Assembly (NCBI GenBank): GCA_028718605.1
Contig: JAQULM010000001.1
Span: forward strand, 519,006-583,005
DNA length: 64,000 bases
Source: Patescibacteria group bacterium
GTDB lineage: Bacteria > Patescibacteriota > Patescibacteriia > UBA10025 > JAHIVO01
Direction: 5' to 3'
Below, piece by piece: positions 5,885-56,330 of this stretch. Made by a program: the position numbers and the translations under genes. How positions within the stretch are numbered: the stretch's first letter is position 1; every line of letters starts with the position of its first letter. The notes beneath the pieces were generated by a model that saw nothing but the letters and a program-made list of their open reading frames with translations, made no database searches and was not told the DNA's origin.

Positions 5885-6394
5885 ATGTCCAGATCTCGCA
5901 TCACCTTAGTTATGGGAATGTTTATGCTGCTCACGGCCTCCATCCTCAACTACGGATGCAGTGAACAGCCGCAAGCACGGATCGAAGAAGAGGGGCTGCT
6001 CTGCCCGATCGACACAAACCTCAAAGCTACAATCAACAGGTATTTCACTCAAAACCCCATCCCGGCCGCCACTCGAAACGACACCACCTGGATCAGGGCA
6101 ATCGTCCTTAAAAAGGATCGTATTTTCACCACGTCCATGGACTTAGCTCTCGTCCTCTACTGTGAGAATGGGGAGCTAAGGAACTTGACTCCGAGCGGTT
6201 TTGCGCTCCCGGTGATAATCGACATGAACACACCGGTTGGCAGTGAAGTCTGGTTCTTCGATAAGAGGAAGATACGTGATGAGTATATTCACGATTCGGA
6301 AATCAGACTAATTAAGGAAGATGCTGTCTGTATCCCTGATCGCGTATTCACTGGGCCACCCCCAGCGTCACCAACAGCCGATTCGACCCTCTAG
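5885..6394 (+). CDS. hypothetical secreted protein / lipoprotein-like, carried on the island between repeat copies 2 and 3
   Basis: GGGGAGG RBS then ATG at 5885; N-terminal signal peptide MSRSRITLVMGMFMLLTASILNYGC; no recognisable domain. Confidence 0.45.
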   Translation: MSRSRITLVMGMFMLLTASILNYGCSEQPQARIEEEGLLCPIDTNLKATINRYFTQNPIPAATRNDTTWIRAIVLKKDRIFTTSMDLALVLYCENGELRNLTPSGFALPVIIDMNTPVGSEVWFFDKRKIRDEYIHDSEIRLIKEDAVCIPDRVFTGPPPASPTADSTL

Positions 6395-6420
6395 TATCGC
6401 TCCTATCAGAAATCTCCCTG

Positions 6421-6451
6421 CCTCCCGGCTTACTACAAGTCGGGAGGTTTT
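6421..6451 (+). terminator. rho-independent terminator
   Basis: CCTCCCG-gcttactacaagt-CGGGAGG hairpin followed by TTTTCGTTT, directly after the 5885..6394 CDS. Confidence 0.5.
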
Positions 6452-6454
6452 CGT

Positions 6455-6520
6455 TTCGACCAGGCAGAGAACCGGATGCATATTCAAAAAGCGATCATCC
6501 TCCATCTACTCGGAACGTAG
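6455..6520 (+). repeat. direct repeat copy 3 of the carbamoyltransferase 3' end
   Basis: TTCGACCAGGCAGAGAACCGGATGCATATTCAAAAAGCGATCATCCTCCATCTACTCGGAACGTAG, ending in a stop codon. Confidence 0.8.
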
Positions 6521-6698
6521 GGGGTGCATACAAGGACCACGCAATGCCAGACAGCTACCCTTGGCTGCCTTCGGGCCTGGTTTTTGATTTGAAAAAAATA
6601 CCTAATATGGTAAAATATCCCCATATAGAGGGCCTGAACCCTCTCTCCATTTTTAAATCCCGTATTGTTCCGCTGCATCCCTTTAATCCGCACCAATC

Positions 6699-9365
6699 AT
6701 GTATCTCCAAAAACTAGTAATCCAGGGCTTCAAATCATTCGCAAACAAAAGCGAGTTGGAATTTACCCCCGGCGTTACCGCAATCGTCGGCCCGAACGGT
6801 TCCGGAAAATCGAATATCGCCGATTCAGTCCGGTGGGTCTTGGGCGAGCAGAGCCTCAAGACGCTCCGCGGCAAGAAATCCGAGGACGTGATTTTCGCAG
6901 GCTCTGACAAGAAAACCAGGCTCGGGTACTGCCAGGTTGATTTGCATTTGAATAATGAGGACCGTACGGCACCCGTCGACTACCAGGAAATCGTGATCTC
7001 GCGTAAAGTGTACCGTGACGGCGAGGGGGAATATTTCATTAATAAAAACCGCGTCCGGCTCCAAGATATACTGATGCTGCTCGCAAAATCAAACTTTGGC
7101 CAGCGTTCCTACAGCATCATCAGCCAGGGAACGGTCGACCTGTTCCTCGCGGCCACGCCGCTCCAGCGCAAGGAATACTTTGATGAAGCGGCTGGCGTGC
7201 GGCAATTCCAGATCAAAAAAGAGCAGGCAGAGCATAAACTAGCCCTAACGAAGGACAATTTGTACCAGGCAGACCTCCTTACACAGGAAATCGAGCCACG
7301 TTTGCGTTCGCTGACGCGGCAGGTGCGCAGGCTCGAGCGCCGCGAAGAGGTAACGAAAGAACTGAAAGAACTCCAGCATACGTACTACGGGGGTTTGTGG
7401 CACGATTTAAAAAATAAACGTGAGCATGAACAGCAGCAATACAACCTCGCGGAACTGAAACAGCATGAAGCGGAAACCGCCCTGCAGGAAATCCAAAACA
7501 ACATGCAGCAGCTTGCGCTCGGCTCGACGCGCCAGGAAGAATTCCAGCAGCTGCAGCGCGAGTATGATACGGTGATCACCCGAAAAAACGCTCTCCTGAA
7601 AGACCAGGCAGTGCTCAAGGGCAGGACGGAGGCTGACCGAGAACAACGCGGCGAATTCGACCTGGTATGGCTCGAACGAAAACAGGAACAGCTTGCACAC
7701 GAAACCAACGCACTTGCAACAAGTATCAAAGAATTTAAAACAGAAGAAGAACGGCACACCGACCAACTGAAGGTGAAGGAACGTGAGCTGAAAGAGCAAG
7801 ATATGCAGCATGTCGCCCTCTCCAATAAACTCCGGATGGCGAAAGAAAAGCTGCAGCAGAAAAAATCTATCGCGCTCCCTGACCTCGCGCGTGAAATCGA
7901 GGATATTTATAACCGATTTAACGGCCTCCTGGAAAAAATTAACGCCGCTGCCACCATCGAGGAGGTTAAAGTCCTCCGCGCTGACCTTAAAACACTCGTG
8001 ACCGAACTCGCCCAGCTGAATCACCGCCTCGGGGGCTCGAATGCAGGTGACCCCCGTGATGTGATCGAATTGCAGGATGCAATTGCCGAACTCCTAAGTG
8101 CGAAAGACGCACTTCTCACTACGATCAACGATTTTCGCGTAAAAATCCAAGTATCCCAGGAACGCGTCTCCCTCAACCAACGCCAACTTCAATCCGTCGA
8201 ACAAGAGCGCGAAAAGGTAAAAAATGAGCTTCAGCGTCTTACCACACGGATCTCGGCATCGGAGCGCGCGGCTAACATTTTAAAGGAAGAACAACAATTA
8301 AACCAACAAATCAAGCAAATCGACTCCTCACTCGCCGATATCAACCGCAAACTCGAGAAATTCAACCATGAAGAACAGAAGAAAAAAGAGGAAGTATTTG
8401 CGCTCCAGACAACCTTCTCAAAAAAGCAGGAAGAACTCAATCGCATCACAGCGGGATTAAACGATATCCGAGTAGAAATCGCCAAGGTCGAAACAAAACA
8501 GGAAGATATCGAACGGGAAATGGTCGATGAGCTGGCTGACGATGAACGCAACAGCATTTTCCAGCTTAAAAACCCTCCGGCACCGCAACCGCCCCTGTTC
8601 CAGGATATACAGAAGCTGAAACACCACCTCGAGCTGATCGGCGGCATTGATCCCCAGGTCAGCAAAGAGTACGAGGAAACCCAGAAGCGTTTCGACTTCC
8701 TGACGCACCAGAGCACTGACCTGCGAAAAGCCATCGAGGACCTGGAAGAGGCGATTGAAAGCTTAGACGAAACGATTAAAAAACAATTCAGTAAAGCATT
8801 CGAACAAATCAATAAGCAATTTACCGAATACTTTAAAGTGCTGTTCAATGGAGGCAACGCAACGCTCACGCTCGTAAAAGAAGAGCCGCGCTCGCCTGAA
8901 ACAGACGAAGCCGACGGGGAAGACGGCGAGGACGTTGACGAGGCGGAATCCAAGCCTGCGGCCGTGCCAGAACCGAAACCAATTTTGCATAAAGAAAAAA
9001 TTATTACTGGCATTGACGTGCATGCGACGCCGCCGGGGAAACGGCTGCGAGGCATCAGCATGCTCTCAGGCGGGGAGCGGGCGCTGACGTCCATCGCTCT
9101 TATCTGTGCAATCATCCACAATAACCCGTCGCCATTCGTTATCCTGGACGAGGTCGACGCAGCGCTCGATGAATCGAATTCAATCCGGTTCGCTTCGATC
9201 GTCGAACGGCTCTCGAAGCGTTCGCAGTTTATCGTCATCACCCACAACAGGGCGACGATGAACAAAGCCCGGATTCTCTACGGGGTTACCATGGGCGATG
9301 ACGGCGTATCCAAACTCCTGTCTATCAACATCCAGGAAGCGGAAAAAGTCATCGCGGAAGCCTAA
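6699..9365 (+). CDS. smc: chromosome segregation protein SMC (short, 888 aa, no obvious hinge domain)
   Basis: N-terminal Walker A (GPNGSGKSN). C-terminal LSGGERALTSIAL…ILDEVDAALDE…FIVITHN signature/Walker B/D-loop. Long coiled-coil middle. Confidence 0.85.
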   Translation: MYLQKLVIQGFKSFANKSELEFTPGVTAIVGPNGSGKSNIADSVRWVLGEQSLKTLRGKKSEDVIFAGSDKKTRLGYCQVDLHLNNEDRTAPVDYQEIVISRKVYRDGEGEYFINKNRVRLQDILMLLAKSNFGQRSYSIISQGTVDLFLAATPLQRKEYFDEAAGVRQFQIKKEQAEHKLALTKDNLYQADLLTQEIEPRLRSLTRQVRRLERREEVTKELKELQHTYYGGLWHDLKNKREHEQQQYNLAELKQHEAETALQEIQNNMQQLALGSTRQEEFQQLQREYDTVITRKNALLKDQAVLKGRTEADREQRGEFDLVWLERKQEQLAHETNALATSIKEFKTEEERHTDQLKVKERELKEQDMQHVALSNKLRMAKEKLQQKKSIALPDLAREIEDIYNRFNGLLEKINAAATIEEVKVLRADLKTLVTELAQLNHRLGGSNAGDPRDVIELQDAIAELLSAKDALLTTINDFRVKIQVSQERVSLNQRQLQSVEQEREKVKNELQRLTTRISASERAANILKEEQQLNQQIKQIDSSLADINRKLEKFNHEEQKKKEEVFALQTTFSKKQEELNRITAGLNDIRVEIAKVETKQEDIEREMVDELADDERNSIFQLKNPPAPQPPLFQDIQKLKHHLELIGGIDPQVSKEYEETQKRFDFLTHQSTDLRKAIEDLEEAIESLDETIKKQFSKAFEQINKQFTEYFKVLFNGGNATLTLVKEEPRSPETDEADGEDGEDVDEAESKPAAVPEPKPILHKEKIITGIDVHATPPGKRLRGISMLSGGERALTSIALICAIIHNNPSPFVILDEVDAALDESNSIRFASIVERLSKRSQFIVITHNRATMNKARILYGVTMGDDGVSKLLSINIQEAEKVIAEA

Positions 9366-9414
9366 GCCCTTGACAGCTTATCCAGCATTACCTATTATTA
9401 TTGTACAAAACACT

Positions 9415-9771
9415 ATGCTAGCAATCAGACTCTCACGAGTAGGAAAGAAAAAGTACGCGACATTCAAGGTTATCGTTTCTGAAAAGACGAAAGACACGGT
9501 CGGAGACTACCTCGAACTGCTCGGTAACTACAACCCCCATACGAATGAGGCGAGCCTCAAAGCTGACCGCATTCGGTATTGGATTTCAAAAGGCGCACAG
9601 CCGTCGGGGTCAATCCACAACCTGCTGATCCAGCATAAAGTTATTGAGGGTAAAAAAATCAAAGTCGCAAATATCAAGAAAAAGGAACAGGAAGGTGCCG
9701 CAGCAGGTTCAGCAGAGGCACCCGCCAAACCAGCGGCAACAGAAGCCCCGGCAAGCGCAGGAAAAAAATAA
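9415..9771 (+). CDS. rpsP: 30S ribosomal protein S16 with a Lys/Ala-rich C-terminal extension
   Basis: MLAIRLSRVGKKKYATFKVIV…; the real start lies inside ORF 9298..9771. Confidence 0.85.
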   Translation: MLAIRLSRVGKKKYATFKVIVSEKTKDTVGDYLELLGNYNPHTNEASLKADRIRYWISKGAQPSGSIHNLLIQHKVIEGKKIKVANIKKKEQEGAAAGSAEAPAKPAATEAPASAGKK

Positions 9772-9895
9772 TTGACAGCAGGATTAGCCAATTGGTACGA
9801 TAGAGATACACTATTTCGAACGCCAGTCTGTATCCTAGGTCGACAGCACTGGTTCTTTCAAAAAAGATAACGAGAAGAAAACTGAATACACGACT

Positions 9896-10237
9896 ATGGC
9901 AAAAGAAGAAATGATGGATCAGGAGTTTGTCGAGTATGTGGTACGAGCCCTCGTCGACCGGCCTGAGGACGTCAAGTCCGACCGGACTGTCGATGAAATG
10001 GGCGTGCTCATCACCCTGAAGGTAAACCCCGCAGACCTCGGGCAGGTTATCGGCCGCCAAGGCCAGACCGCCAAGGCCATCCGGACACTCCTCCGGGTCG
10101 TTGGAGCGAAAAACCACGCTCGCGTCAACCTGAAGATCCATGAACCAGACGGTTTCCACAAAGGAAACAGGGGTGGTTCACGGGAAGAACGGCACGAAGA
10201 AGCTGATACGTCAGCTGTCGATGACCTGAAAATATAA
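9896..10237 (+). CDS. KH-domain RNA-binding protein (KhpA/YlqC-like)
   Basis: GxxG KH motif (VIGRQGQTAKAIRTLL). Conserved rpsP-KH-trmD gene order. Confidence 0.7.
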   Translation: MAKEEMMDQEFVEYVVRALVDRPEDVKSDRTVDEMGVLITLKVNPADLGQVIGRQGQTAKAIRTLLRVVGAKNHARVNLKIHEPDGFHKGNRGGSREERHEEADTSAVDDLKI

Positions 10238-10316
10238 CACAACATCGAAACTATAAGCAAAGATCGTACGGTGTGATATACTAACCGTACGATTTTTGCT
10301 TCAAGCAAACCGTTAT

Positions 10317-10958
10317 ATGCAATATGACATCCTCACAATTTTCCCTAATGCCTTCGTTTCTTACTGCAATGAGAGCATCCTGAAGCGTGCCCAAGACGGA
10401 AAGCATGTTTCGATTCGCATCCATGATATTCGCCGGTTTACGACGGACAAGCATAGAACGGTCGATGACCGCCCGTATGGCGGCGGACCCGGCATGGTAA
10501 TGAAGCCTGAGCCGATCTATCGGTGCCTCAATGCAATCAAGCGAAAAAAGAAATCACGGACGATTCTCTTGAGCGCTCGCGGAAAAACATACACCCAGCG
10601 CATTGCGAAGCGGCTCGCAAAGTATGACCAGCTCCTGTTTATTTGCGGGCACTATGAAGGCGTTGACGAACGCATATCGAAATACGCAGACGAGCAAATC
10701 TCCATCGGCAACTATGTACTGACTGGCGGGGAGCTTCCCGCACTCGTCATCATCGACAGTGTCACCCGATTACTGCCAGGCGTGCTCGGAGATCCCCGAT
10801 CAACGCATGATGAATCTTTTTCGCCCTGCGACACATACCGCGAATATCCCCAGTACACACGGCCTGAAGTGTTCAACGGGATGCGGGTTCCGCGTATTCT
10901 CCTCTCGGGCAACCATTCGAAAATTGCCTCCTGGAAGCGTACGAAATCCCGCACTTGA
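10317..10958 (+). CDS. trmD: tRNA (guanine37-N1)-methyltransferase
   Basis: MQYDILTIFP…GGGPGMVMKP…YVLTGGELPALV SPOUT-knot motifs. Confidence 0.85.
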   Translation: MQYDILTIFPNAFVSYCNESILKRAQDGKHVSIRIHDIRRFTTDKHRTVDDRPYGGGPGMVMKPEPIYRCLNAIKRKKKSRTILLSARGKTYTQRIAKRLAKYDQLLFICGHYEGVDERISKYADEQISIGNYVLTGGELPALVIIDSVTRLLPGVLGDPRSTHDESFSPCDTYREYPQYTRPEVFNGMRVPRILLSGNHSKIASWKRTKSRT

Positions 10959-20724: not shown

Positions 20725-21663
20725 TCATTTAATTTCTTTAAGGAATTGCGCTGCGAGGGTAACTGTATCAACAGAGGAACTGTAGAAATCCTTCCACACA
20801 ACGACTATATTAGCGTCATTGAACACGGCCCGCTGCACCTCGCGTATCGTATCACCACCAGCAACGGCGACGGTGATATTATAACTCCCTCGGATCTGCT
20901 TGATCTGATAATACGGGATTTGTTTTTCTTTCGAGAACTCGGTCTCGTCGACGCCACGGTGCAAAACCACAACATCCGGAAGCGCCCTGAGCTGGCGAAG
21001 GAGCATATGCGGGCTTTCTACATTCATCATGTCGACCATTGAATCAAGCCCGTGCTGCTTGCATGCCGCGATAAACCGGTCGATTGTTTCTACGCGCGCG
21101 ACCCCAAGGCACGTAATCCCGTTCGCGCCTGCCGTTGCGGCCATTTCAACCTCCCGCTCTGCCAGATCAGCCGTTTTTGCATCGGCGACAACGTACGCAC
21201 CCGGCCAGGCCATCGCACGGACAGTGCGGATTGCCTCAGCTCCGTATATTTTTATCAGCGGTGTGCCCGCCTCGAGGATGATCCGGTCGGATGGCGGAAG
21301 ACGGCTTATAATCGAGCGCGCATCATCGAGCGTGCTATTGAGCGCAATTTGCAAATACTGCTTGCTTTTCTGTAGTTTTGCGGTGGGAACTGGCACAAGC
21401 GGCATTTGCGCTGTTTTCTGGGACAGCGAACTGAACGCCAGTGCAATCGGCGTCTTTAGGGGCGTTGCTGCCGGTTGTGTGCTTGTTGGTGCGCCTTTCG
21501 GGGCATGGCGTGCTTGCTGAGAAATTTTTTCGAGGAATTGCAGGAGGGGTGATCCGGCCGGTGCTCCTTTCTTTTTCCGGAATATCATCCGCACTATAAA
21601 AAAGAAGATTGCAAAGTTAAAAATCGTCGTAAATACCTCAAAAACTTTAATAGGAGAAGCCAT
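20725..21663 (-). CDS. 3-hexulose-6-phosphate synthase-like (OMPDC/KGPDC-family) protein with an N-terminal TM helix and ~90-aa linker (alternative start ~21405)
   Basis: C-terminal domain KQYLQIALN…ILEAGTPLI…VVADAKTADLA…GANGITCLGVA matches the HPS/KGPDC ribulose-phosphate-binding barrel. Confidence 0.55.
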   Translation of the reverse strand: MASPIKVFEVFTTIFNFAIFFFIVRMIFRKKKGAPAGSPLLQFLEKISQQARHAPKGAPTSTQPAATPLKTPIALAFSSLSQKTAQMPLVPVPTAKLQKSKQYLQIALNSTLDDARSIISRLPPSDRIILEAGTPLIKIYGAEAIRTVRAMAWPGAYVVADAKTADLAEREVEMAATAGANGITCLGVARVETIDRFIAACKQHGLDSMVDMMNVESPHMLLRQLRALPDVVVLHRGVDETEFSKEKQIPYYQIKQIRGSYNITVAVAGGDTIREVQRAVFNDANIVVVWKDFYSSSVDTVTLAAQFLKEIK

Positions 21664-21666
21664 GGC

Positions 21667-22473
21667 TTAGATGACAACCTTTAAAAAACTCTCTGCAAGC
21701 TCCGCCATCTTGTGGGGCTCCTCATAGAATGGGCGCCACACAATGGCGATGTCGGCATCATTGAACACCGTACTCGTTACCTCGCGGAATGTTTCGCATC
21801 CAGCCACTGAAATCGTGACTGGATACGTCCCCTTGATCCGGCGTATCATGTGCAGCGGGATGCTGCGCTCACGGTTCAGATCATGCTCATCAACTCCGCG
21901 GTGAAGCACGACAATATCCGGAAGCGGGCGAAGCTTCTGCAGCACCTCAAACGGAAATTCGACATTCATCATGTCAACCGTTGAATCGATGCCTGCTGCC
22001 GCGCAGTGCTTGATGAATTCACTAATGGTTTCGATGGGCGCCAAACCAAGGCAGGTCGCGGCTGAAGCACCTGCCGCTGCTGCCGCCGCGACTTCTGTAT
22101 ATCCCCGATCCATGCATTTCAGGTCTGCAACGACGTACCCGGGCCTGCCAAGCTTCGCGGACCAACACTGGTACACCATCCCAATTCCGCTGCTGCCGTA
22201 CACCTTTACGAAAGGTGTGCCGACTTCAATAATTATCCTATCCGATGGGGGCAGGGATGCTATCATCTGCCGTACCTCCGGAAGGGAGCGATTCAAGGCT
22301 ATCTGGAGATAACATTTTCGCTTTTCAAGTCGCATAAAGAAGTATTTTGACAACTGCCCATTAGCATACCTGTAGTATACCCAATTCGCCTCAGGGCGAA
22401 CAGGTAACCCGTAAACGCGCGTTTTTGTCCCGATTTCGTCCTTCGATAATACCCGAATCCTAAAGGTTGACAT
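21667..22473 (-). CDS. 3-hexulose-6-phosphate synthase-like protein, tandem paralog
   Basis: KCYLQIALN…IIEVGTPFV…VVADLKCMD…GASAATCLGLA. Same family as 20725..21663, with a ~50-aa N-terminal extension. Confidence 0.55.
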   Translation of the reverse strand: MSTFRIRVLSKDEIGTKTRVYGLPVRPEANWVYYRYANGQLSKYFFMRLEKRKCYLQIALNRSLPEVRQMIASLPPSDRIIIEVGTPFVKVYGSSGIGMVYQCWSAKLGRPGYVVADLKCMDRGYTEVAAAAAAGASAATCLGLAPIETISEFIKHCAAAGIDSTVDMMNVEFPFEVLQKLRPLPDIVVLHRGVDEHDLNRERSIPLHMIRRIKGTYPVTISVAGCETFREVTSTVFNDADIAIVWRPFYEEPHKMAELAESFLKVVI

Positions 22474-23248: not shown

Positions 23249-23323
23249 GGCCACGTAGCCAAGTGGTAAGGCGGGGGTCTGCAAAACCCCTATTCAGCGG
23301 TTCGATTCCGCTCGTGGCCTCCA
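23249..23323 (+). tRNA. tRNA-Cys (anticodon GCA), CCA encoded
   Basis: GGCCACGTAGCCAAGTGGTAAGGCGGGGGTCTGCAAAACCCCTATTCAGCGGTTCGATTCCGCTCGTGGCCTCCA. Confidence 0.85.
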
Positions 23324-23453
23324 CTTGTCTCAATCTAAAACTCTGAAACATCCGAGTCCGCGCATTGGCGGACGAGGAAAAGGAGAAATGGTACGGAGGG
23401 TGGAGCATGCGGCGCATAAGCCGCTGGCGAAATCCGAAGTACCATTTGGACGC

Positions 23454-23528
23454 GCGGGTGTCGTATAACGGTTATTATACTTCCTTGCCAAGGAAGAGAA
23501 GGCGGTTCAATTCCGCTCACCCGCTCCA
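23454..23528 (+). tRNA. tRNA-Gly (anticodon GCC), CCA encoded
   Basis: GCGGGTGTCGTATAACGGTTATTATACTTCCTTGCCAAGGAAGAGAAGGCGGTTCAATTCCGCTCACCCGCTCCA. Confidence 0.85.
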
Positions 23529-23546
23529 GAGCATATTCCAACCGCC

Positions 23547-24008
23547 ATGCAAAAGAAACATGATATTGTCCTGATCCTGCACAATGTCCGGAGCAGGTTT
23601 AATGTCGGCGCGATATTTCGTACCGCCGACGCAGCGGGTGTGAAAAAAATTTATCTTTGCGGCATTACACCGGCGCCGCCGCACCCGAAAATCGATAAAG
23701 TTGCCCTTGGCGCACAGCAGTTTATCCCGTTCGAGAAACACCGCCAAACAGTCCGGTTGATAAAGCAGCTGAAAGCTGAAGGACAACGCGTCGTTGCTAT
23801 CGAACAATCGCACAGCAGCATCCCATACTATCATCTGAAAAATAAAAAACCACTCGTGCTCATCGTCGGTGCCGAAGTACGGGGACTACCTGCAAAAATT
23901 CTGAAGCTGTGCGACAAAACGGTTGAAATCCCGATGTATGGGAAAAAGGAGTCGCTCAATGTGGCGGTCGCACTTGGAATCGTAATATTTGATATAATAC
24001 AGCAGTAA
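23547..24008 (+). CDS. SpoU/TrmH-family RNA 2'-O-methyltransferase
   Basis: 153 aa SPOUT fold (…LVLIVGAEVRGLP…ESLNVAVALGIVIF). Confidence 0.75.
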   Translation: MQKKHDIVLILHNVRSRFNVGAIFRTADAAGVKKIYLCGITPAPPHPKIDKVALGAQQFIPFEKHRQTVRLIKQLKAEGQRVVAIEQSHSSIPYYHLKNKKPLVLIVGAEVRGLPAKILKLCDKTVEIPMYGKKESLNVAVALGIVIFDIIQQ

Positions 24009-24092
24009 GCCGCGGTGGCGGAACTGGTATACGCGCAGGACTTAAAATCCTGTGTCCGCAAGGGCTTGTGGGTTCGACTCCCACCCGCGGCA
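24009..24092 (+). tRNA. tRNA-Leu (anticodon TAA), long variable arm
   Basis: GCCGCGGTGGCGGAACTGGTATACGCGCAGGACTTAAAATCCTGTGTCCGCAAGGGCTTGTGGGTTCGACTCCCACCCGCGGCA. Confidence 0.85.
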
Positions 24093-24122: not shown

Positions 24123-25082
24123 ATGGCGCCCGTGTCTCAGTTACAACGTTCCACGAACGGCAAGCCAAACCTCGTCGTCCTGCACCCGGGACGCTCAATT
24201 TCCGGTTACCCCTTCAATATCGCGAAGTACCGGGAATCGTACCACGATTTTTTTCGGCTCGCGCAAAAAAAGTCAGCGGTGTTTTATGTGCGAACGGGCG
24301 CATCGCGGTACCTGGGCAACGGCGTATTTTCCCATGGATACCAGTTCACGGGCGATAAACTTGTTCCGTACCGGCACCCGATCGCGGCAGCAGTCATGTA
24401 CAATAAAGCGCGGTTTCCGCATAACAGCGGCGCTATGTGGCAGATCGTCAATCCCTGGAAACTGTACGGAATCACGTACGATAAATTCGGCTGCTACCAG
24501 CTGCTCAAACAGTACATGAAACCAACGTACCGCGTGACCTCCCGGAAGACTTTCGTACGATCGCTTCAAAAAATCAAAACCGCGTGGGTTGTCTGGAAGC
24601 CCGTGTTCGGCTCCGAAGGGCGGGGGATTAAAATCGGCCCGAAAAGCCTTATTAGGCGCCGCATTAAACGCTACGATGGATTACTGCAGGAATTCATCGA
24701 CACGTCCGATGGTGTTCCTGGTGTTTGCAAAGGCTTGCACGATATGCGAATCTTGCTGATGAACGGCCGCATCGTCCAGTCGTACGTACGCCAGCCCCGC
24801 AAAGGTTCATATCTCGCCAATGTCGCCCAGGGCGGCCGAATGCTCGAAATCAGAAAAAATCAGATCCCGCGTCGGGCACGCGCTATCGCACAGCGCATTG
24901 ATGAACGCTTTTTTAATTATTTTGGGCCCCGAATTTATGCGATTGACTTCGGATTTGAACGTGGCAAACCGTACTTATTCGAAATCAACCCACAGCCAGG
25001 TCTGCCGTATCGGCAGTGGCCGCTCTACTACCGCGCCTGGCACCATGAACTTCTCAATACATTACTGTCGAGCATACGATAA
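24123..25082 (+). CDS. RimK-like ATP-grasp amidoligase
   Basis: VVWKPVFGSEGRGIKI…LLQEFID…HDMRILLMNGRIV…AIDFGFERGKPYLFEINPQPG ATP-grasp core. Confidence 0.7.
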   Translation: MAPVSQLQRSTNGKPNLVVLHPGRSISGYPFNIAKYRESYHDFFRLAQKKSAVFYVRTGASRYLGNGVFSHGYQFTGDKLVPYRHPIAAAVMYNKARFPHNSGAMWQIVNPWKLYGITYDKFGCYQLLKQYMKPTYRVTSRKTFVRSLQKIKTAWVVWKPVFGSEGRGIKIGPKSLIRRRIKRYDGLLQEFIDTSDGVPGVCKGLHDMRILLMNGRIVQSYVRQPRKGSYLANVAQGGRMLEIRKNQIPRRARAIAQRIDERFFNYFGPRIYAIDFGFERGKPYLFEINPQPGLPYRQWPLYYRAWHHELLNTLLSSIR

Positions 25083-25096
25083 CCCCCTCAAGTGCT

Positions 25097-26656
25097 ATGA
25101 AAACAATCCGCATATACGCGACACTCGCCATTATAATCGCCGGCATGCTGCCGATGTGCGCACGCGCGGACGAACTAGTCCCGATCCAACCGCAGGATAC
25201 CACGGCAGAACAGCCAGCGACACTGGGCGAACAGCCGGCTGAACTTGCGGCAAAAATTACTTCGGAAGATTACATCCTCTACGAAAAGAAGTCCCTGTTC
25301 GACGCCTCGGAGTCGACCCTGCTCCCGTCTGATTCACAGCCAACCTACCGCTGGGAATTTTCGGACGTGCCAACGCCGCAGTTCGGCAAGGAAGTCATTC
25401 GCGAATTCAAACAAACGGGAATCCACCGGGTAACTCTGACCATACAGCAAGGCGACGTATCCGACACTGCCAGTAAAGAAGTTTTCGTATACGACCAAAA
25501 AGTGCTCATGATCACGGATAAAAATCTCGCGAAGGAATTCAAGCTTATCGTGAACCAAGCGGCAAACGATGGAGTGCTTCTCAAGGTCGTCTCCGCCGTG
25601 GAAGAAGAGACGGGCTTTCTGACTGAAGAGAAATTGGTGCCCCTCATCGGTGAAGAGGCGGAATTTATCCGCGATACCGACGGGCTTATATTTTATACCA
25701 ACGCATCTCGCGGCCTCCAGGCGTTCACCCGTTATTGGCAGGGGCTGGGATCAGACAAAACAATCAATCTAGATTCTATTCAGCTTGTTGTGGTAACGGA
25801 ACAGAATATGTCAATCGCGGCCGACCTCGCGCAACAGTCATATGAAGTGATGAAGCCAAAAAATATCATTGTGACGCGCACCGAGGCGCTCAATCCGCTT
25901 TTTGAAACGAAAAACTACAACGAGTTTGTCACGAAGCTCGACGACCGCGCCATTGAGTACCGTATCGTTGACGCGCGCAGCGGCAAATCAGATGCTTTTT
26001 TCCTCTCACGCGCGATCACGACATTCATCGCAAAAGGCATACCAACCAATACGATTTACCTGCTGCTCGCATTTCCCTTTATCGCGTTCGTCGTGACGTT
26101 CTTCCGGCAAGTTATCGGGTTATCCGCCTTTGGCATTTATACGCCGACGGTTACGGCACTTTCGCTGCTCATCCTCGGGATTTATTTCGGCATTGGGACG
26201 TTGCTTATCGTCGTCGCAGTGAGCTACCTCCTGCGCATGGCGCTCAATAAGTTCAAACTCCTGTACATTCCGAAGACAAGCCTTATCCTCTCATCAATCG
26301 CATTATCCTTCCTCGGCCTTATCTGGTTTCTCGCGTACTACCGCGTTTCGCTGGCAATATCGCTCGCTATCTTCCCGATGCTCGTCATGTCAACGATTTC
26401 AGAAAAATTCCTGTCCGCGCAATCGGAGGAAGGCCTCGGGGAAGCGCTCTGGGGCGTCGTCAAAACAATACTCATCGCGGTGGTCGCATACTACCTCGTC
26501 GTATGGACCGCATTCACCAACCTCATCATGTCATGGCCTGAGTTGATCGTCGCTCCACTGCTCGGCATCATACTCCTGGGGAGGTTTACCGGCCTGCGGT
26601 TCACCGAATACATCCGCTTCCGCAGCCTCCTCAAGGAAAAACAAATCGAAGAATAA
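25097..26656 (+). CDS. signal-peptide protein with a ~290-aa extracytoplasmic domain and a C-terminal 7-TM module (7TM_transglut-like architecture)
   Basis: N-terminal signal peptide; 7 predicted TM helices from ~aa 300 to the end. Sits between the two ATP-grasp genes. Confidence 0.5.
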   Translation: MKTIRIYATLAIIIAGMLPMCARADELVPIQPQDTTAEQPATLGEQPAELAAKITSEDYILYEKKSLFDASESTLLPSDSQPTYRWEFSDVPTPQFGKEVIREFKQTGIHRVTLTIQQGDVSDTASKEVFVYDQKVLMITDKNLAKEFKLIVNQAANDGVLLKVVSAVEEETGFLTEEKLVPLIGEEAEFIRDTDGLIFYTNASRGLQAFTRYWQGLGSDKTINLDSIQLVVVTEQNMSIAADLAQQSYEVMKPKNIIVTRTEALNPLFETKNYNEFVTKLDDRAIEYRIVDARSGKSDAFFLSRAITTFIAKGIPTNTIYLLLAFPFIAFVVTFFRQVIGLSAFGIYTPTVTALSLLILGIYFGIGTLLIVVAVSYLLRMALNKFKLLYIPKTSLILSSIALSFLGLIWFLAYYRVSLAISLAIFPMLVMSTISEKFLSAQSEEGLGEALWGVVKTILIAVVAYYLVVWTAFTNLIMSWPELIVAPLLGIILLGRFTGLRFTEYIRFRSLLKEKQIEE

Positions 26657-26668
26657 TTCCCGCACGCT

Positions 26669-28999
26669 ATGTGGCCATTTTCAAAATCTGCGGACATCCT
26701 GGGGATTAATGCGCGGAATCTCCTCTACATCGCACGGTACAACACAAGAGCGAAGAAGCACCTCGCCGACGATAAAATCTACACCAAGCACTACCTGCAC
26801 GCTCGCGGCATCGGTACGGCGAAACTGTACTATTCGCTCCAGTCACTCGAGGAGCTCCGCCATTTTAATCCAGCTAGCCTCCCCAGGAGCTTCGTCATCA
26901 AGCCAAACCGCGGGTACGGCGGGGAAGGCATTATTGCAATTGCTGACCGGCGCGGCCAAACATTCATCGATGTCGACGGCCAGCGATATTCATGGTCGGA
27001 CCTGAACACGCATTGCGTCGGCATACTCGATGGAAAATACGCCATATCGGGCTTACACGACAAGGTGATTTTTGAGGAACGCCTGCTGCCGCACGAGTAT
27101 TTTAAAAAATTTATGGATGTCGGCCTCCCGGACATCCGCATTATCGTATTCCGGTACGTCCCCATTATCGCGATGCTCCGCCTGCCGACGCCTGAATCCA
27201 GGGGCAAAGCAAACCTTCACCTCGGCGCGATCGGGCTCGGGATCGACATCGGCACCGGCAAAACAACATTCGGGGTGCACCATAACCAACTTATCCGGAA
27301 ACTTCCAAACGGCGAATCAGTCCGGAGCATCAGTATCCCTGACTGGGACGCAATACTGCTCACTGCGTCAAAAACCCAGCATTACACGCAGATCGGTTAT
27401 CTGGCCGTCGACGTAGCGCCAACGAACAATGGCATAAAAATCCTGGAGCTCAACGCCCGCGCCGGCCTCGCGATACAAATATCAAACCAGGTGCTCCTGC
27501 GCAAGCGCCTTGAAAAAGTGGCTGACCTGAAAGTCGTGTCACCGGAAGAGGGGGTCAGGATTGGAAAAACGCTGTTTACCCGCATAGTGAAAAAAAGCCC
27601 AGACGACCAGCCAAAAAGCGCGAAACCAACCATCGGGCTCTTTGAGCATATCGCAATTATCAATACACCGTACGATTCAATGCTGGCGAAAGTCGACCCT
27701 CATAGCAGCACCAATTACTTTGACCAGAGCCTGACGCTCGGCGGGCTCGCGAAAGTTATTACGATAAAATTAAAGGGCAAAAAAATCAAGATACCGTTCG
27801 AGCAAGCCGATCTTTCCAACATTCCGTACCGTGCAATTCTCGGCGGCAAATATCTCGCTGATTTTCTCATCGACATTACCCAAAAAGTGCCCTTTGCGAA
27901 CACTGCCCCCTTCGAATCTCGCGAGGAAAAAATTCTTCTGAATATCGATAAAAAAGTATGCTCTATAAACGAGCAGATCAATCTCCTTGCCGGGCTGAAG
28001 CCGGTCAATCTGGCCGAGCAACAGCGCGAATTCCTGAAAAACCCGACGAAGTCCCCACAATTTGTGTATAGAAAATTAACCGTTGATTGCGAACAACTTC
28101 GGAATGAATTGAAAAAAATTCCGCAAAACCTCAACCATCCATTTATCGAACTGTATCGCCGGAAAATCCGCGAGATCGAAAATAAACTCTCTATCATCGA
28201 ACATGTCGGCGAACCGGATGCCCTTACCTACGCGCACGAATTGTACGGTTCAGTCACCTACGACCAGTATGAAGCTGCGGTGCGCATGCTCCGACAGGAG
28301 TCCATGGAGGCTGACACGAGCAAGAAACTCCGCATGGACGACGTCATCGACAGGATCGGACACTACCTTGCTGAAAAAAAACTGACGCGGTGGAAAATCA
28401 AAATCCTCGACTCAGCGACAGCAGACATGCAAGTCAATAAAAAGAATGCGATCATGGTGCGCAAAAAAGCGCAGATCACGGAAAACCGCCTCAGGGCGTT
28501 GATTGCCCACGAAATCGAAACGCACATTTTCCGGCTAGAAAACGGCCGCCTACAGCGGTACCGCCTGTTCGAACAGGGGACAGCGAGCTACCTCCCGACA
28601 GAGGAGGGACTCGCCATCTACAACCAGCGGCGGCTCAATATTCCGCTCGGCGCGAAACATTTTTCTCCAGCGCTGAATGTCATCGCGGCATACCACGGGC
28701 AATCAATGCCGTTCCACGAGCTCCACCGGCTTCTCACGGCCGAATACCAGCAAAACCCGGTCCGTGCATGGCAGCTGTGCGTACGGGTAAAGCGGGGGCT
28801 TGGGGACACCACAGCGCCCGGCGCGTTCATGAAGGACATCGTATACTTCCTCGGGTACCATATGATAACCAACCTCGTGCTGGAAAAAGGCACGAGCGAG
28901 CTCAGAAAATTGTATATCGGAAAAATCAGCGCCGCAGACCTCTCGATACTGGGTGACACGAGCTCCTGGCCGGTCCGGTTCGTCCCCGACTACCATTAA
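26669..28999 (+). CDS. fusion of an ATPgrasp_ST-type ATP-grasp ligase (N-terminal) and a DUF1704/MATCAP-like Zn-metallopeptidase (C-terminal; HEIETH, TEEGLA motifs)
   Basis: N-terminus INARNLLYIARYN…FVIKPNRGYGGEGI (ATP-grasp). C-terminus AHEIETHIFR (HExxH) and YLPTEEGLAIY (a QEGLA-like motif). 776 aa. Confidence 0.6.
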   Translation: MWPFSKSADILGINARNLLYIARYNTRAKKHLADDKIYTKHYLHARGIGTAKLYYSLQSLEELRHFNPASLPRSFVIKPNRGYGGEGIIAIADRRGQTFIDVDGQRYSWSDLNTHCVGILDGKYAISGLHDKVIFEERLLPHEYFKKFMDVGLPDIRIIVFRYVPIIAMLRLPTPESRGKANLHLGAIGLGIDIGTGKTTFGVHHNQLIRKLPNGESVRSISIPDWDAILLTASKTQHYTQIGYLAVDVAPTNNGIKILELNARAGLAIQISNQVLLRKRLEKVADLKVVSPEEGVRIGKTLFTRIVKKSPDDQPKSAKPTIGLFEHIAIINTPYDSMLAKVDPHSSTNYFDQSLTLGGLAKVITIKLKGKKIKIPFEQADLSNIPYRAILGGKYLADFLIDITQKVPFANTAPFESREEKILLNIDKKVCSINEQINLLAGLKPVNLAEQQREFLKNPTKSPQFVYRKLTVDCEQLRNELKKIPQNLNHPFIELYRRKIREIENKLSIIEHVGEPDALTYAHELYGSVTYDQYEAAVRMLRQESMEADTSKKLRMDDVIDRIGHYLAEKKLTRWKIKILDSATADMQVNKKNAIMVRKKAQITENRLRALIAHEIETHIFRLENGRLQRYRLFEQGTASYLPTEEGLAIYNQRRLNIPLGAKHFSPALNVIAAYHGQSMPFHELHRLLTAEYQQNPVRAWQLCVRVKRGLGDTTAPGAFMKDIVYFLGYHMITNLVLEKGTSELRKLYIGKISAADLSILGDTSSWPVRFVPDYH

Positions 29000-54208: not shown

Positions 54209-55717
54209 TTATTCCTGCTCCCAGGTCAGCACGCGATACTGGTCCGTCACTGGGAAAAACGGCGGTGGCGCAAAATAAAAATTCTCATCATAGTACAGGT
54301 TGCGGATGCAGTACCCGCTCGCTGTCGTGCCGCACGGCGCGCACGCCGGGTTCCCGGCACCGCCGCATACATAGGCGAACCCGTAGCGCTGGTTTGTCCC
54401 GATCGCCCCGTAGTTCGTGTACGTCGAGCGGACGTAATTTTGGTTGCAGCTCGCAGGATCAAACGTTCCGGAATCCGCAGCATAGTAGAGCCGGCCAACC
54501 TTGCCTTTCTGCGCTATCTGTGCGGCGTCGACTCGCAAATCATCTTCGCTATAGAAACCGGCGAGGATGCTGTCCTGCGCGATAAGGCCGATCGCGTCAG
54601 TGCCGTCGTAGTTTGTATAGGTAAGGTCATTATTGATAATTATCGAAGCGTTGCCGGAACTATACGGGGCTTTGGCGGCGATGATCGATACGCGGCTTCC
54701 ATTTACCTGGCCGTCAACCCATACATCATCCTCGATGAAGATAAGCCCGTTCGCCGGCATGCTGAGGCTCCCGGAATCGACACCGTGGTAATCAAATGTT
54801 GACTCAGTCTCGATTGACCATAGGTTCGTACTCGTGTAGTTAGTCCACCAACACCACAGCCAAAAGCAGGTGTACTTCCGGCACGTTTTTTGGGCTGTAA
54901 CCCGATAAATTCCGACTTTCTCGCCCGGCAGGAACTTCACGTGATACCCTTCGGTGCCGGAATCAGTCAGGTAAATGCCCCCCGATTCAGCTTCCTCCTG
55001 CAGATCATCAAATTCACCGCTGATTCCCGTAAAGCTGACGCTGCCAGCGTCAATAACCCTGCCTGCCGCGAATACGTCGGGACGGCTTGCGAGCTCTGTC
55101 GGCGGCGCCGCATCAACGGGCGTCAGGTGCGTATGGACAGCCCATTCGTCAGCTCCCGAGTGGTCCGGGTCGTTGTAGGTAATCTCAGAGCTGCTCACCA
55201 CGTTATGCGCAAACCCGTCAAATCGGATCCCGTAGTTCGAATGAATCGGCCCAAACACTTCCGTGCCTTCCCCAAACCGCATGTTATCATTCGCAACAAC
55301 CGCAAAATTAGTGAATGACGGCCGGCCGAGCTTTGCGGTGATTGCCCGCTCGACCAGTGTGCTCGCCGTGGTGCTTCCGAGTGAGCGGATTTCCGCGACC
55401 GTTGATCCGGCGGGCGGAGCGGTGATATCCAGCGTAAACTGCCCGAATGCATTACCGTCGGCATCCGTATAGGAATGAAGGTAGGGACCCGATGCGCCGG
55501 TTCCATCCTGGTAGTCTTCCTGCGCATGCGCGAGGTGCCACCGATAATATTCGATGCCCGCTTCAGCAACCTGGAATGCTGCCTCGGCGTGTGCGGAGTG
55601 GCCGGCGACTCGCATACGGCTGAGCACGTACGTTGTCGATATGGAAGCCAGGCTGACGAACAATGTCGTGATAATTAGCACGGGAATATAGATGCTGCCT
55701 CCTGTCCTATTCTTCAT
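54209..55717 (-). CDS. type IV pilus minor-pilin / PilX-like protein with N-terminal TM segment
   Basis: N-terminal hydrophobic helix (IYIPVLIITTLFVSLASIS), then a ~470-aa Ser/Thr/Gly/Asp-rich extracellular region with a C-terminal Cys cluster. Last gene of the pilin cluster. Confidence 0.45.
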   Translation of the reverse strand: MKNRTGGSIYIPVLIITTLFVSLASISTTYVLSRMRVAGHSAHAEAAFQVAEAGIEYYRWHLAHAQEDYQDGTGASGPYLHSYTDADGNAFGQFTLDITAPPAGSTVAEIRSLGSTTASTLVERAITAKLGRPSFTNFAVVANDNMRFGEGTEVFGPIHSNYGIRFDGFAHNVVSSSEITYNDPDHSGADEWAVHTHLTPVDAAPPTELASRPDVFAAGRVIDAGSVSFTGISGEFDDLQEEAESGGIYLTDSGTEGYHVKFLPGEKVGIYRVTAQKTCRKYTCFWLWCWWTNYTSTNLWSIETESTFDYHGVDSGSLSMPANGLIFIEDDVWVDGQVNGSRVSIIAAKAPYSSGNASIIINNDLTYTNYDGTDAIGLIAQDSILAGFYSEDDLRVDAAQIAQKGKVGRLYYAADSGTFDPASCNQNYVRSTYTNYGAIGTNQRYGFAYVCGGAGNPACAPCGTTASGYCIRNLYYDENFYFAPPPFFPVTDQYRVLTWEQE

Positions 55718-56330
55718 ATGTATACTTGAGATTTCTCAATGAAATATTCGTCCCGATTTCCAGCTGTTGTGATTGCTGGCCATACCCTGTCTCAACCAGG
55801 AATTTGATCTGCACCAAACTGACCTCGCGAAGGCTTACCGGTTCTGCGAGAGGCGCTGAGCTGCCATCATACGTTTTGTCGTAATACCGAAAAATATAAT
55901 CCTCATTCATGATATTTTCCGCGGCGATATGCCCATCATCTTCCGTGAATGCAGGATACTGGGGAGGTTCCGCCGTATCAGCGTTCACAACCCACCGGTA
56001 CAGGGTTGTCCCCTCAAGGGCATACCGAATCTTTTCCCTGCGGGCGTCACCCTGGACATTTGCATAAAAAACTATCTCAAACGGCTCGGCTATTTCCAAT
56101 GGATACGATCCGTTATCCGACAGTATCATCTCACGCACGTCACCAGTGACATCGTGCATAGCTGAACGGGCGTCTTCCTGGGCGTCAACCTGACTTCGCG
56201 TAATATTCCAGCGCCGCATACCCTCATACCCGTATGTTCCAACCCCAATGGCAATGGCTGAAACGATCCCGATGACAACGATCATCTCAACGACTGTAAA
56301 TCCATACATTGTATTCTTCAAGGCTTTCAT
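55707..56330 (-). CDS. type IV pilin-like protein (prepilin-type N-terminal cleavage/methylation domain)
   Basis: MKALKNTMYG|FTVVEMIVVIGIVSAIAIG: class III signal with the G-F-T-x-x-E prepilin motif. Confidence 0.65.
   Translation of the reverse strand: MKALKNTMYGFTVVEMIVVIGIVSAIAIGVGTYGYEGMRRWNITRSQVDAQEDARSAMHDVTGDVREMILSDNGSYPLEIAEPFEIVFYANVQGDARREKIRYALEGTTLYRWVVNADTAEPPQYPAFTEDDGHIAAENIMNEDYIFRYYDKTYDGSSAPLAEPVSLREVSLVQIKFLVETGYGQQSQQLEIGTNISLRNLKYTYEE

Follow-up and report, generated by a model that had tools for sequence, protein, structure and literature searches.

We analyzed a 64,000-nucleotide (nt) stretch of contig JAQULM010000001.1 (hereafter the window) from the metagenome-assembled genome (MAG) of an uncultured member of the Patescibacteria (GCA_028718605.1) and focused on three of its genes, g1, g2, and g3, which encode an accessory ATP-grasp ligase, a seven-transmembrane (7TM) protein, and a ligase-peptidase fusion, respectively. 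We assign the locus, as a Patescibacterial variant, to the Rlo-type module, in which a 7TM envelope protein, an ATPgrasp_ST ligase, and a glutamate-removing peptidase are brought together, and it is very likely that the system, as an Rlo-like pairing of ligase and peptidase, acts on Glu-rich C-termini. Further, we favor, at a probability of roughly 0.4, a reading in which the C-terminal tail of g2 is itself the substrate or primer, which the ligase would extend with Glu and the carboxypeptidase would trim, with the g2 ectodomain and 7TM bundle setting the balance between the two activities. The first-pass annotation of the window, made from the sequence alone, had described three co-directional, closely packed genes after tRNA-Leu(TAA), and the coordinates of the open reading frames (ORFs) and ARAGORN agree with this description: all three genes lie on the + strand with spacers of 14 nt (g1-g2) and 12 nt (g2-g3), and the operon starts 30 nt past the tRNA gene (Table 1).

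The reference system is rloABC of Pseudomonas aeruginosa (mBio 2025), which encodes the secreted retropepsin RloA, the 7TM protein RloB with an inactive transglutaminase domain, and the ATP-grasp protein RloC (PMC12239564). In vitro, RloA cleaves Glu runs of 8 or more residues, and deletion of rloB or rloC suppresses the RloA triple-protease mutant; the combination of these two results implies that the three proteins act on one Glu-rich product (PMC12239564). Mutants in rlo genes are sensitive to hypo-osmotic stress and are also affected in the shape of the cell, in beta-lactam sensitivity, and in the integrity of the envelope, and the authors, who did not find a genome-encoded substrate, proposed poly-E peptides or polyglutamylated proteins (PMC12239564). 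In the RimK system, RimK lengthens the C-terminus of S6 (...EE) and RimB reverses this, and RimK also makes free poly-alpha-Glu (PMC12239564). The MATCAP/TMCP enzymes are HExxxH carboxypeptidases that act on the acidic tails of tubulin and also shorten polyglutamate chains (PMC10499314). The earlier statement that the module had not been characterised biochemically thus holds for one part only: genetics of the related rloABC and biochemistry of RloA were published in 2025 (PMC12239564), and the MATCAP-fused Patescibacterial form was not found in the literature searched. The same search did not find a non-transglutaminase ectodomain, a retropepsin relic, or a 7TM partner with an invariant Glu tail. 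This class of module had reportedly been predicted earlier by comparative genomics.

The g3 gene product had been described as a fusion of an ATPgrasp_ST ligase to a DUF1704/MATCAP peptidase carrying HEIETH and TEEGLA motifs, and searches with Pfam hidden Markov models (HMMs) recovered both domains, ATPgrasp_ST at 181.5 bits (cutoff 31.4, E 2.5e-53, aa 16-284) and MATCAP (PF08014) at 144.7 bits (cutoff 27, E 4.7e-42, aa 455-762). The ligase domain also matched TIGR02291 (alpha-L-glutamate ligase-like) with the model covered (243.7 bits, E 2.2e-72), which, with a score under the equivalog cutoff of 314.2, is a family-level and not an equivalog-level match; likewise, the peptidase domain matched TIGR02421 (QEGLA) at 152.1 bits (E 2.4e-44), below the equivalog cutoff of 338.65, and its version of the motif reads TEEGLA. 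The HEIETH (aa 614-619) and TEEGLA (aa 644-649) motifs are invariant in 23 diverse homologs, including His-614, Glu-615, His-619, Glu-645, and Glu-646, as are Lys-78, Glu-136/Glu-137, Asp-248, Glu-260, Asn-262, and Arg-264 of the ligase domain (23 homologs, 45-64% identity). The downstream metal-ligating Glu is predicted to lie in the TEEGLA motif, and we note that HEIETH, previously labelled HExxH, is an HExxxH motif of the MATCAP/TMCP type (PMC10499314). When g3 was compared with human MATCAP (PDB 7Z5G) by phmmer (E 2.5e-10), HEIETH aligned with HEIGTH, PTEEGLA was identical, and a KRG...PG...KD..VY block was common to both. The AlphaFold2 (AF2) model of g3, with a mean predicted local distance difference test score (pLDDT) of 86.7, returned the same MATCAP structure as its best Foldseek match (E 2e-12, target TM-score 0.62-0.65), and its N-terminal domain matched RimK (5ZCT, 3e-8), ArgX/LysX, and cyanophycin synthetase. 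In the Pfam search, the TTL domain (PF03133) had no match in g1 or g3 at E <=0.1. A protein identical to g3 is already deposited under the label "DUF1704 domain-containing protein".

Between the two catalytic domains of g3 lies a conserved segment (aa ~320-405), all-beta in the AF2 model (pLDDT 74-89), which is undetected by Pfam and is found by profile-profile comparison alone. Using hhalign, it matched retropepsin domains with a probability of 89% (E 2.2e-6, 88 columns) and aligned over its full length to the retropepsin domains of two loci of our comparative set, L084 and L085, and to RloA of Legionella and Aeromonas. In these two sister-lineage loci, a 467-aa ATPgrasp_ST fusion carries a RimB-like retropepsin with an intact DTG at the same position, and an active retropepsin fused to the ligase is seen in the Patescibacterial loci L084, L085, L086, L087, and L089. 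In g3, DPH replaces the catalytic DTG (KVDPHS, nt 27689-27706) and ~55 residues are deleted; judged from its sequence, the middle domain is probably a degenerate, inactive relic of a retropepsin. A separate retropepsin gene was not found in the operon among the window ORFs. We infer that an ancestral ligase-retropepsin fusion gained the MATCAP domain and that the retropepsin then decayed, perhaps into a binding module. Peptidase modules, retropepsin or MATCAP, would have been swapped on one ligase scaffold, with the relic left behind. A metagenome scan for additional retropepsin-fused variants, in which low-complexity patterns served as queries, returned two loci only. Further, the retropepsin-type system at L084 is followed by three tandem RimK/cyanophycin-synthetase-like ATP-grasp genes (6263-9178) and that at L089 by one RimK-like and two Mur-ligase-family genes (7509-10793). 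These ligase arrays hint at a peptide product of greater complexity in some lineages.

The second gene had been described as encoding a signal peptide, an extracytoplasmic domain, and seven C-terminal transmembrane (TM) helices, and Pfam, hydropathy, and AF2 agree on this architecture. The Pfam search placed 7TM_transglut (PF14402) at aa 320-511 (95.2 bits, cutoff 25, E 5.6e-27) and PKD_4 at aa 63-127, and the AF2 model (mean pLDDT 85.7) contains the signal-peptide helix, the seven TM helices, and a cytoplasmic C-terminal helix. The cleavage site of the signal peptide is predicted from an AxA motif. A transglutaminase-type ectodomain had also been expected, and here the expectation failed: HMM searches recovered 7TM_transglut and not Transglut_i_TM, which was found in 0/118 g2 homologs, and no transglutaminase core was found in g2 by Pfam or in the model. 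We therefore reject an inactive transglutaminase ectodomain for g2; the ectodomain consists of a PKD domain and a flavodoxin-like domain, the latter holding the place of the inactive transglutaminase domain of RloB. When g2 was compared with the NCBIfam RloB model, its C-terminal half alone aligned, and we conclude that the 7TM module is all that g2 has in common with RloB.

To define the conserved unit, one genome per GTDB species was scanned for homologs, which yielded 311 g3 relatives; the locus counts reported here cover the best 80 of these 311. All 80 are full-length fusions, and all belong to lineages of the Patescibacteria (Kerfeld-, Magasanik-, Uhr-, Peregrini-, Gracilibacteria, and others). 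A g2 homolog lies directly upstream and co-directional at 75/80 loci, with a gap that is mostly <= ~40 nt, and the five loci without an adjacent g2 form one Peribacteria-type subgroup, one of which has a g2 homolog ~95 kb off on the same contig with the Glu tail retained. By tblastn, g1 is adjacent and co-directional at 9/80 loci, in the closest relatives only, and is found on the opposite strand, as one or two paralogs, at 7 further loci; overall, it is near the core pair at 16/80 loci by tblastn and at 14/80 by ORF clustering, and the other loci are without it. No further gene family recurs across the 80 loci beyond clade-level synteny. The conserved unit is the g2+g3 pair. The trio had been put forward as a conserved neighborhood, and this we reject; of the co-occurrence in related genomes that the proposal called for, the part concerning g2 and g3 stands, whereas g1 is mostly absent. 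The pair constitutes a conserved envelope-linked module of many reduced Patescibacteria genomes. Divergently upstream of the fusion gene at three of the five loci without an adjacent 7TM gene (L040, 6807-7160; L045, 7556-7891; L055, 2448-2780; all on the − strand), we note an acidic coiled-coil-like ORF of ~110 aa. We also note that many loci (L001, L002, L013, L018, and others) are Patescibacteria-type, with 48-63% identity to the window, and come from "binchicken" MAGs titled "uncultured Gammaproteobacteria bacterium", labels that look like placeholders or mislabels.

The g2 protein ends in ...RFRSLLKEKQIEE, with the terminal Glu-Glu codons at 26648-26653. Of the complete ORFs of the g2 family at the genome loci, 71/71 have a C-terminal Glu and 58/71 a C-terminal EE, against a background of 5.1% and 0.23%, respectively, among 860 ORFs outside the family at these loci. 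Among the g2 homologs of an independent database set, 115/118 have a Glu run of 1-5 residues at the C-terminus. The length of the run differs among close relatives (IEE, IEEE, IEEEE; 2 to 4 in the closest relatives of the window), the 4-5 residues ahead of it are variable between homologs, and the run is the sole invariant cytoplasmic feature of g2 outside the bundle. Because g2 has a signal peptide and seven TM helices, its tail is predicted to be cytoplasmic, on the same side as g3. Besides g2, a single ORF among the 76 of the window ends in Glu-Glu, a prepilin-like ORF at 55707-56330 (− strand; N-terminus MKALKNTMYGFTVVEMIVV..., C-terminus ...YTYEE).

An exhaustive search of the wider 7TM family gave 1,528 representatives, among which two classes of C-termini can be told apart, one with Glu runs and one with basic tails; the relatives paired with retropepsin-type or stand-alone ligases have mostly basic C-terminal residues. 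The Glu tail is missing at 6/6 distinct loci (L089 and L090 counted once) at which the partner is a ligase-retropepsin fusion (L084, L085, L086, and L089/L090), a ligase with a separate RimB-like gene (L096), or a stand-alone ligase (L098), and MATCAP is absent from all contexts that were retrieved for non-Glu tails. The proteobacterial RloB proteins of Legionella and Aeromonas are also without a Glu tail. For one divergent Glu-tailed representative that was looked up (P0234), the partner is a MATCAP fusion; at the divergent Glu-tailed loci L088, L091, L092, L093, and L094, the contig stops at the gene, shortly after it, or within the neighboring ligase gene. For the association of tail and partner, the raw Fisher p of 3e-8 overstates independence because most of the Glu-tailed proteins form one clade. 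At L092, we note that, in this Glu-tailed lineage, a NUDIX hydrolase gene (1863-2312) separates the 7TM gene from the ATPgrasp_ST ligase.

We favor the g2 tail as the substrate or primer of g3 because the domains and active sites of g3 are intact and conserved, because g2 and g3 are adjacent and co-directional at 75/80 loci, and because the Glu run is near-invariant while the linker preceding it varies and the tail is on the g3 side. Further, the enzymes structurally closest to the two ligases (RimK, LysX/ArgX, cyanophycin synthetase, and GshB) all use or elongate a C-terminal carboxylate, MATCAP-family enzymes are carboxypeptidases of acidic tails and also deglutamylases (PMC10499314), and the 7TM relatives partnered with the retropepsin-type or stand-alone ligases listed above are without the tail at 6/6 loci, whereas the Glu-tailed P0234 is partnered with a MATCAP fusion; each of these points argues for the same reading, as does the one Glu-rich product implied for the Pseudomonas proteins (PMC12239564). 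The gene pair suggests that the g2 tail may be reversibly glutamylated, in a way similar to the tails of tubulin. In such a scheme, the ligase domain would activate the alpha-carboxylate of the terminal Glu of g2 and add amino acids, most probably Glu, in the manner of RimK on S6, and the MATCAP domain would cut the added residues singly, as MATCAP/TMCP do on tubulin, so that writer and eraser would be parts of a single polypeptide held at the membrane. The ectodomain and the 7TM bundle, through a state that reflects envelope or osmotic status, would set the ligase-peptidase balance and hence the tail length; the retropepsin remnant may act as an oligo-Glu docking site, and g1 would be an optional additional ligase in some lineages, serving as initiator, as elongator, or with another amino-acid specificity.

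Several points weigh against the tail as substrate. First, the RloB proteins of proteobacteria function together with RloC and have no tail of this kind, which therefore cannot be a universal substrate of the module, and the EE at the g2 terminus could serve for docking or as a pseudo-substrate. Second, a quick neighbor-joining tree puts most of the Glu-tailed proteins in one clade, with a minimum of 9 state changes and many single-E ends, and the correlation of tail and MATCAP therefore has few independent contrasts. Third, L087 combines a retropepsin-type fusion with a 7TM protein that has a single terminal E, and the Glu-tailed P0362 (L092) adjoins a ligase whose nearest full-length relatives are without a fused peptidase, so that a Glu tail does not always go with MATCAP. 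These two loci weaken the idea that tail and MATCAP correspond strictly one to one. Finally, the amino-acid specificity of the ligase is assigned by analogy with its relatives, and the inter-domain geometry of g3 is modelled without confidence (predicted TM-score 0.52).

The main alternative is the turnover of free poly-alpha-glutamate or short Glu-rich peptides, in which the ligase would polymerise and the carboxypeptidase depolymerise, buffering osmotic glutamate or feeding an envelope process, with the 7TM protein as sensor, regulator, or exporter and the EE tail only as a primer, a docking motif, or a pseudo-substrate controlling the active sites. RimK does make free poly-alpha-Glu, RloA cuts runs of >=8 Glu, the authors of the Rlo study favor a poly-E or polyglutamylated substrate, and the hypo-osmotic sensitivity of the rlo mutants fits such a role (PMC12239564), as does the 27-52-fold induction of a QEGLA/MATCAP-family gene, the adjacent ATP-grasp gene, and rimK in Photobacterium at low salt (PMC10308900); 7TM relatives without a Glu tail, moreover, still partner the same ligase family. 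We nevertheless consider this alternative rather unlikely as it leaves unexplained both the invariance of the Glu run in 186 homologs behind a variable linker and the use of a MATCAP-type enzyme, known on protein tails, for processive polymer breakdown, and a fused synthase and hydrolase would risk a futile cycle unless tightly regulated. That the enzymes modify another protein (S6 or another acidic C-terminus), with the 7TM protein recruiting or regulating them and the EE tail mimicking the true substrate, appears improbable: S6 is the canonical target of RimK, which g1 resembles, and the pilin-like ORF at 55707-56330 is also EE-terminal, but no candidate substrate gene is conserved nearby, g2 and g3 alone recur across the 80 loci, and a ribosomal target would leave the tight coupling of g3 to a membrane protein unexplained. 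Modification of an envelope polymer, in which ATPgrasp_ST would add amino acids to a lipid-linked or wall precursor, the 7TM protein would flip or scaffold it, and the peptidase would edit it, fits the Pfam name of the ligase ("sugar-transfer associated"), the shape, beta-lactam, and envelope-integrity phenotypes of rlo mutants (PMC12239564), the Mur-ligase-like genes after the retropepsin-type variant at L089, and the frequent binding of surface polymers by PKD ectodomains, but it is distinctly improbable given that glycosyltransferase or wall-synthesis genes are not consistently linked across the 80 loci, that MATCAP-type carboxypeptidases and RimK-class ligases are known on peptide alpha-carboxylates and not on sugars, and that the Glu tail goes unexplained.

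Returning to the g2 tail as substrate, a Glu-run tail beside a fused ligase and peptidase provides a simple substrate hypothesis for Rlo-type systems, which is testable by mass spectrometry. In its boldest form, the hypothesis amounts to a prokaryotic "tail code", in which one enzyme, writer and eraser at once, reversibly polyglutamylates the cytoplasmic C-terminal tail of a 7TM envelope sensor, with the length of the tail as the signal. We regard this form as doubtful, but, if true, the MATCAP domain would represent a bacterial ancestry of the tubulin-code eraser, already acting on oligo-Glu protein tails, and a long-sought kind of substrate for Rlo-type systems would be named.

Comparison with known systems places the locus as follows. 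Like rloABC, it has a 7TM_transglut module and a cytoplasmic ATPgrasp_ST/TIGR02291-type ligase beside a peptidase, g3 retains a retropepsin remnant, and the Patescibacterial ligase-retropepsin loci bridge the two architectures. It differs in that the peptidase is a cytoplasmic MATCAP-type metallocarboxypeptidase on the ligase chain, whereas RloA is a secreted aspartic endopeptidase; a signal-peptide retropepsin with DTG/DSG is absent here and only the fused remnant is present. Further, the g2 ectodomain is PKD plus flavodoxin-like, whereas RloB has an inactive transglutaminase, g2 has the invariant Glu run that RloB of Legionella and Aeromonas does not, and an extra RimK-like ligase is present. 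The RimK-RimB-RpsF system is similar in that an ATP-grasp enzyme extends a Glu-Glu C-terminus and a dedicated peptidase removes the addition, and RimK is structurally near both ligases; here, the candidate substrate is the tail of a membrane protein, a MATCAP-type exopeptidase takes the place of the retropepsin as eraser, and writer and eraser are fused. With respect to the tubulin cycle (TTL/TTLL versus MATCAP/TMCP (KIAA0895L/KIAA0895), VASH, and CCP), the peptidase domain of g3 is a true MATCAP homolog, and by analogy an ATP-grasp enzyme would add to, and a metallocarboxypeptidase remove from, an acidic C-terminal tail. The differences are that the g3 ligase is of the RimK/RloC and not the TTL class, that tubulin and microtubule-binding elements are absent, that both activities are on one chain, and that the target is putative; the resemblance on the ligase side is functional, and homology is confined to the peptidase.

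Bacterial homologs of MATCAP, which is known for removing tyrosine and glutamate from tubulin, are widespread and are wired to ATP-grasp ligases. The pairs of QEGLA (TIGR02421) and GshB-like genes in Sinorhizobium pSym and Photobacterium resemble g3 in that they link a peptidase of the MATCAP family genetically to an ATP-grasp enzyme, and differ in that the genes are separate, the ATP-grasp subfamily is another one, a 7TM partner is absent, and an N-formylglutamate amidohydrolase is adjacent. The Photobacterium pair (A0J47_RS17020/17025) is 27-38-fold up at low salinity (PMC10308900). In Sinorhizobium meliloti pSym (L083, 4403-8204), a longer QEGLA/MATCAP-family protein of 628 aa is found, in a different conserved cluster, with an ATP-grasp protein annotated as "glutathione synthase" and an N-formylglutamate amidohydrolase. 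The g3 ligase is also structurally similar to ArgX/LysX, which act on the C-terminal Glu of LysW; neither a carrier protein nor Lys/Arg biosynthetic genes were found near g1-g2-g3 or across the 80 loci.

The first gene had been called a RimK-type ligase, and the Pfam RimK model (PF08443) supports this with 35 bits against a cutoff of 21 (E 1.4e-8). Its ATP-grasp core spans aa 107-294, and Lys-159, Asp-275, Glu-287, and Asn-289 are invariant in the family alignment, with the ATP/Mg2+ residues intact. Against TIGR00768, g1 scored 39.7 bits, under the subfamily cutoff of 143.4, and a single-sequence search of the PDB gave no match; the family profile matched cyanophycin synthetase (9e-25), GshAB, and RimK-type chains from 1e-18 (Pseudomonas syringae alpha-L-glutamate ligase) to 2e-16 (Escherichia coli RimK). 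On these sequence comparisons, g1 is best called a distant RimK/GshB/CphA-class ligase. RimK-like accessory ligases are also found at L084 (three) and L087 (one), and such ligases are recurrent accessories of the g2+g3 pair.

Table 1. Features of the g1-g2-g3 locus (positions in nt of the window)
Feature	Position	Strand	Remarks
tRNA-Leu(taa)	24009-24092	+	ARAGORN; directly upstream of the operon
g1, accessory ATP-grasp ligase of the RimK/GshB/cyanophycin-synthetase class	24123-25082	+	319 aa, cytoplasmic
g2, membrane protein	25097-26656	+	519 aa
g2 predicted signal peptide	25097-25168	+	MKTIRIYATLAIIIAGMLPMCARA, followed by DE; hydrophobic N-terminal helix aa 2-21 in model
g2 PKD beta-sandwich domain, extracytoplasmic	25271-25516	+	aa 59-140
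g2 alpha/beta (flavodoxin-like) ectodomain	25517-25996	+	aa 141-300
g2 seven-helix transmembrane bundle	26045-26587	+	aa 317-497; hydropathy and AF2 helices concordant
g2 cytoplasmic C-terminal helix and tail	26600-26653	+	FTEYIRFRSLLKEKQIEE; direct sequence reading
g3, three-domain enzyme (ligase, retropepsin remnant, MATCAP-type carboxypeptidase)	26669-28999	+	776 aa, cytoplasmic
g3 ATPgrasp_ST / RloC-like (TIGR02291-like) ligase domain	26714-27538	+	aa 16-290
g3 middle domain, RimB/RloA-like retropepsin remnant	27626-27883	+	aa 320-405; shortened, probably inactive
g3 MATCAP / DUF1704 gluzincin carboxypeptidase domain	27947-28954	+	aa 427-762
g3 motif HEIETH	28508-28525	+	
g3 motif TEEGLA	28598-28615	+	
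g3 motif KRG	28790-28798	+	

The genes flanking g1-g2-g3 are unrelated housekeeping genes, and a convergent riboflavin-kinase gene bounds the 3' side. A scan for promoters and terminators gave no signal beyond chance level. The tRNA gene upstream of g1 belongs to a small cluster (Cys-GCA, Gly-GCC, and Leu-TAA, 23249-24092) into which a SpoU-family methyltransferase gene is inserted; the latter (23547-24008) abuts tRNA-Leu and is also found upstream in 7 related loci. Further upstream, on the − strand, lie two tandem paralogs of the orotidine monophosphate decarboxylase/HUMPS family (20725-21663 and 21667-22473), the first of which has a hydrophobic segment at its N-terminus and, after it, a long extension that is poorly structured.

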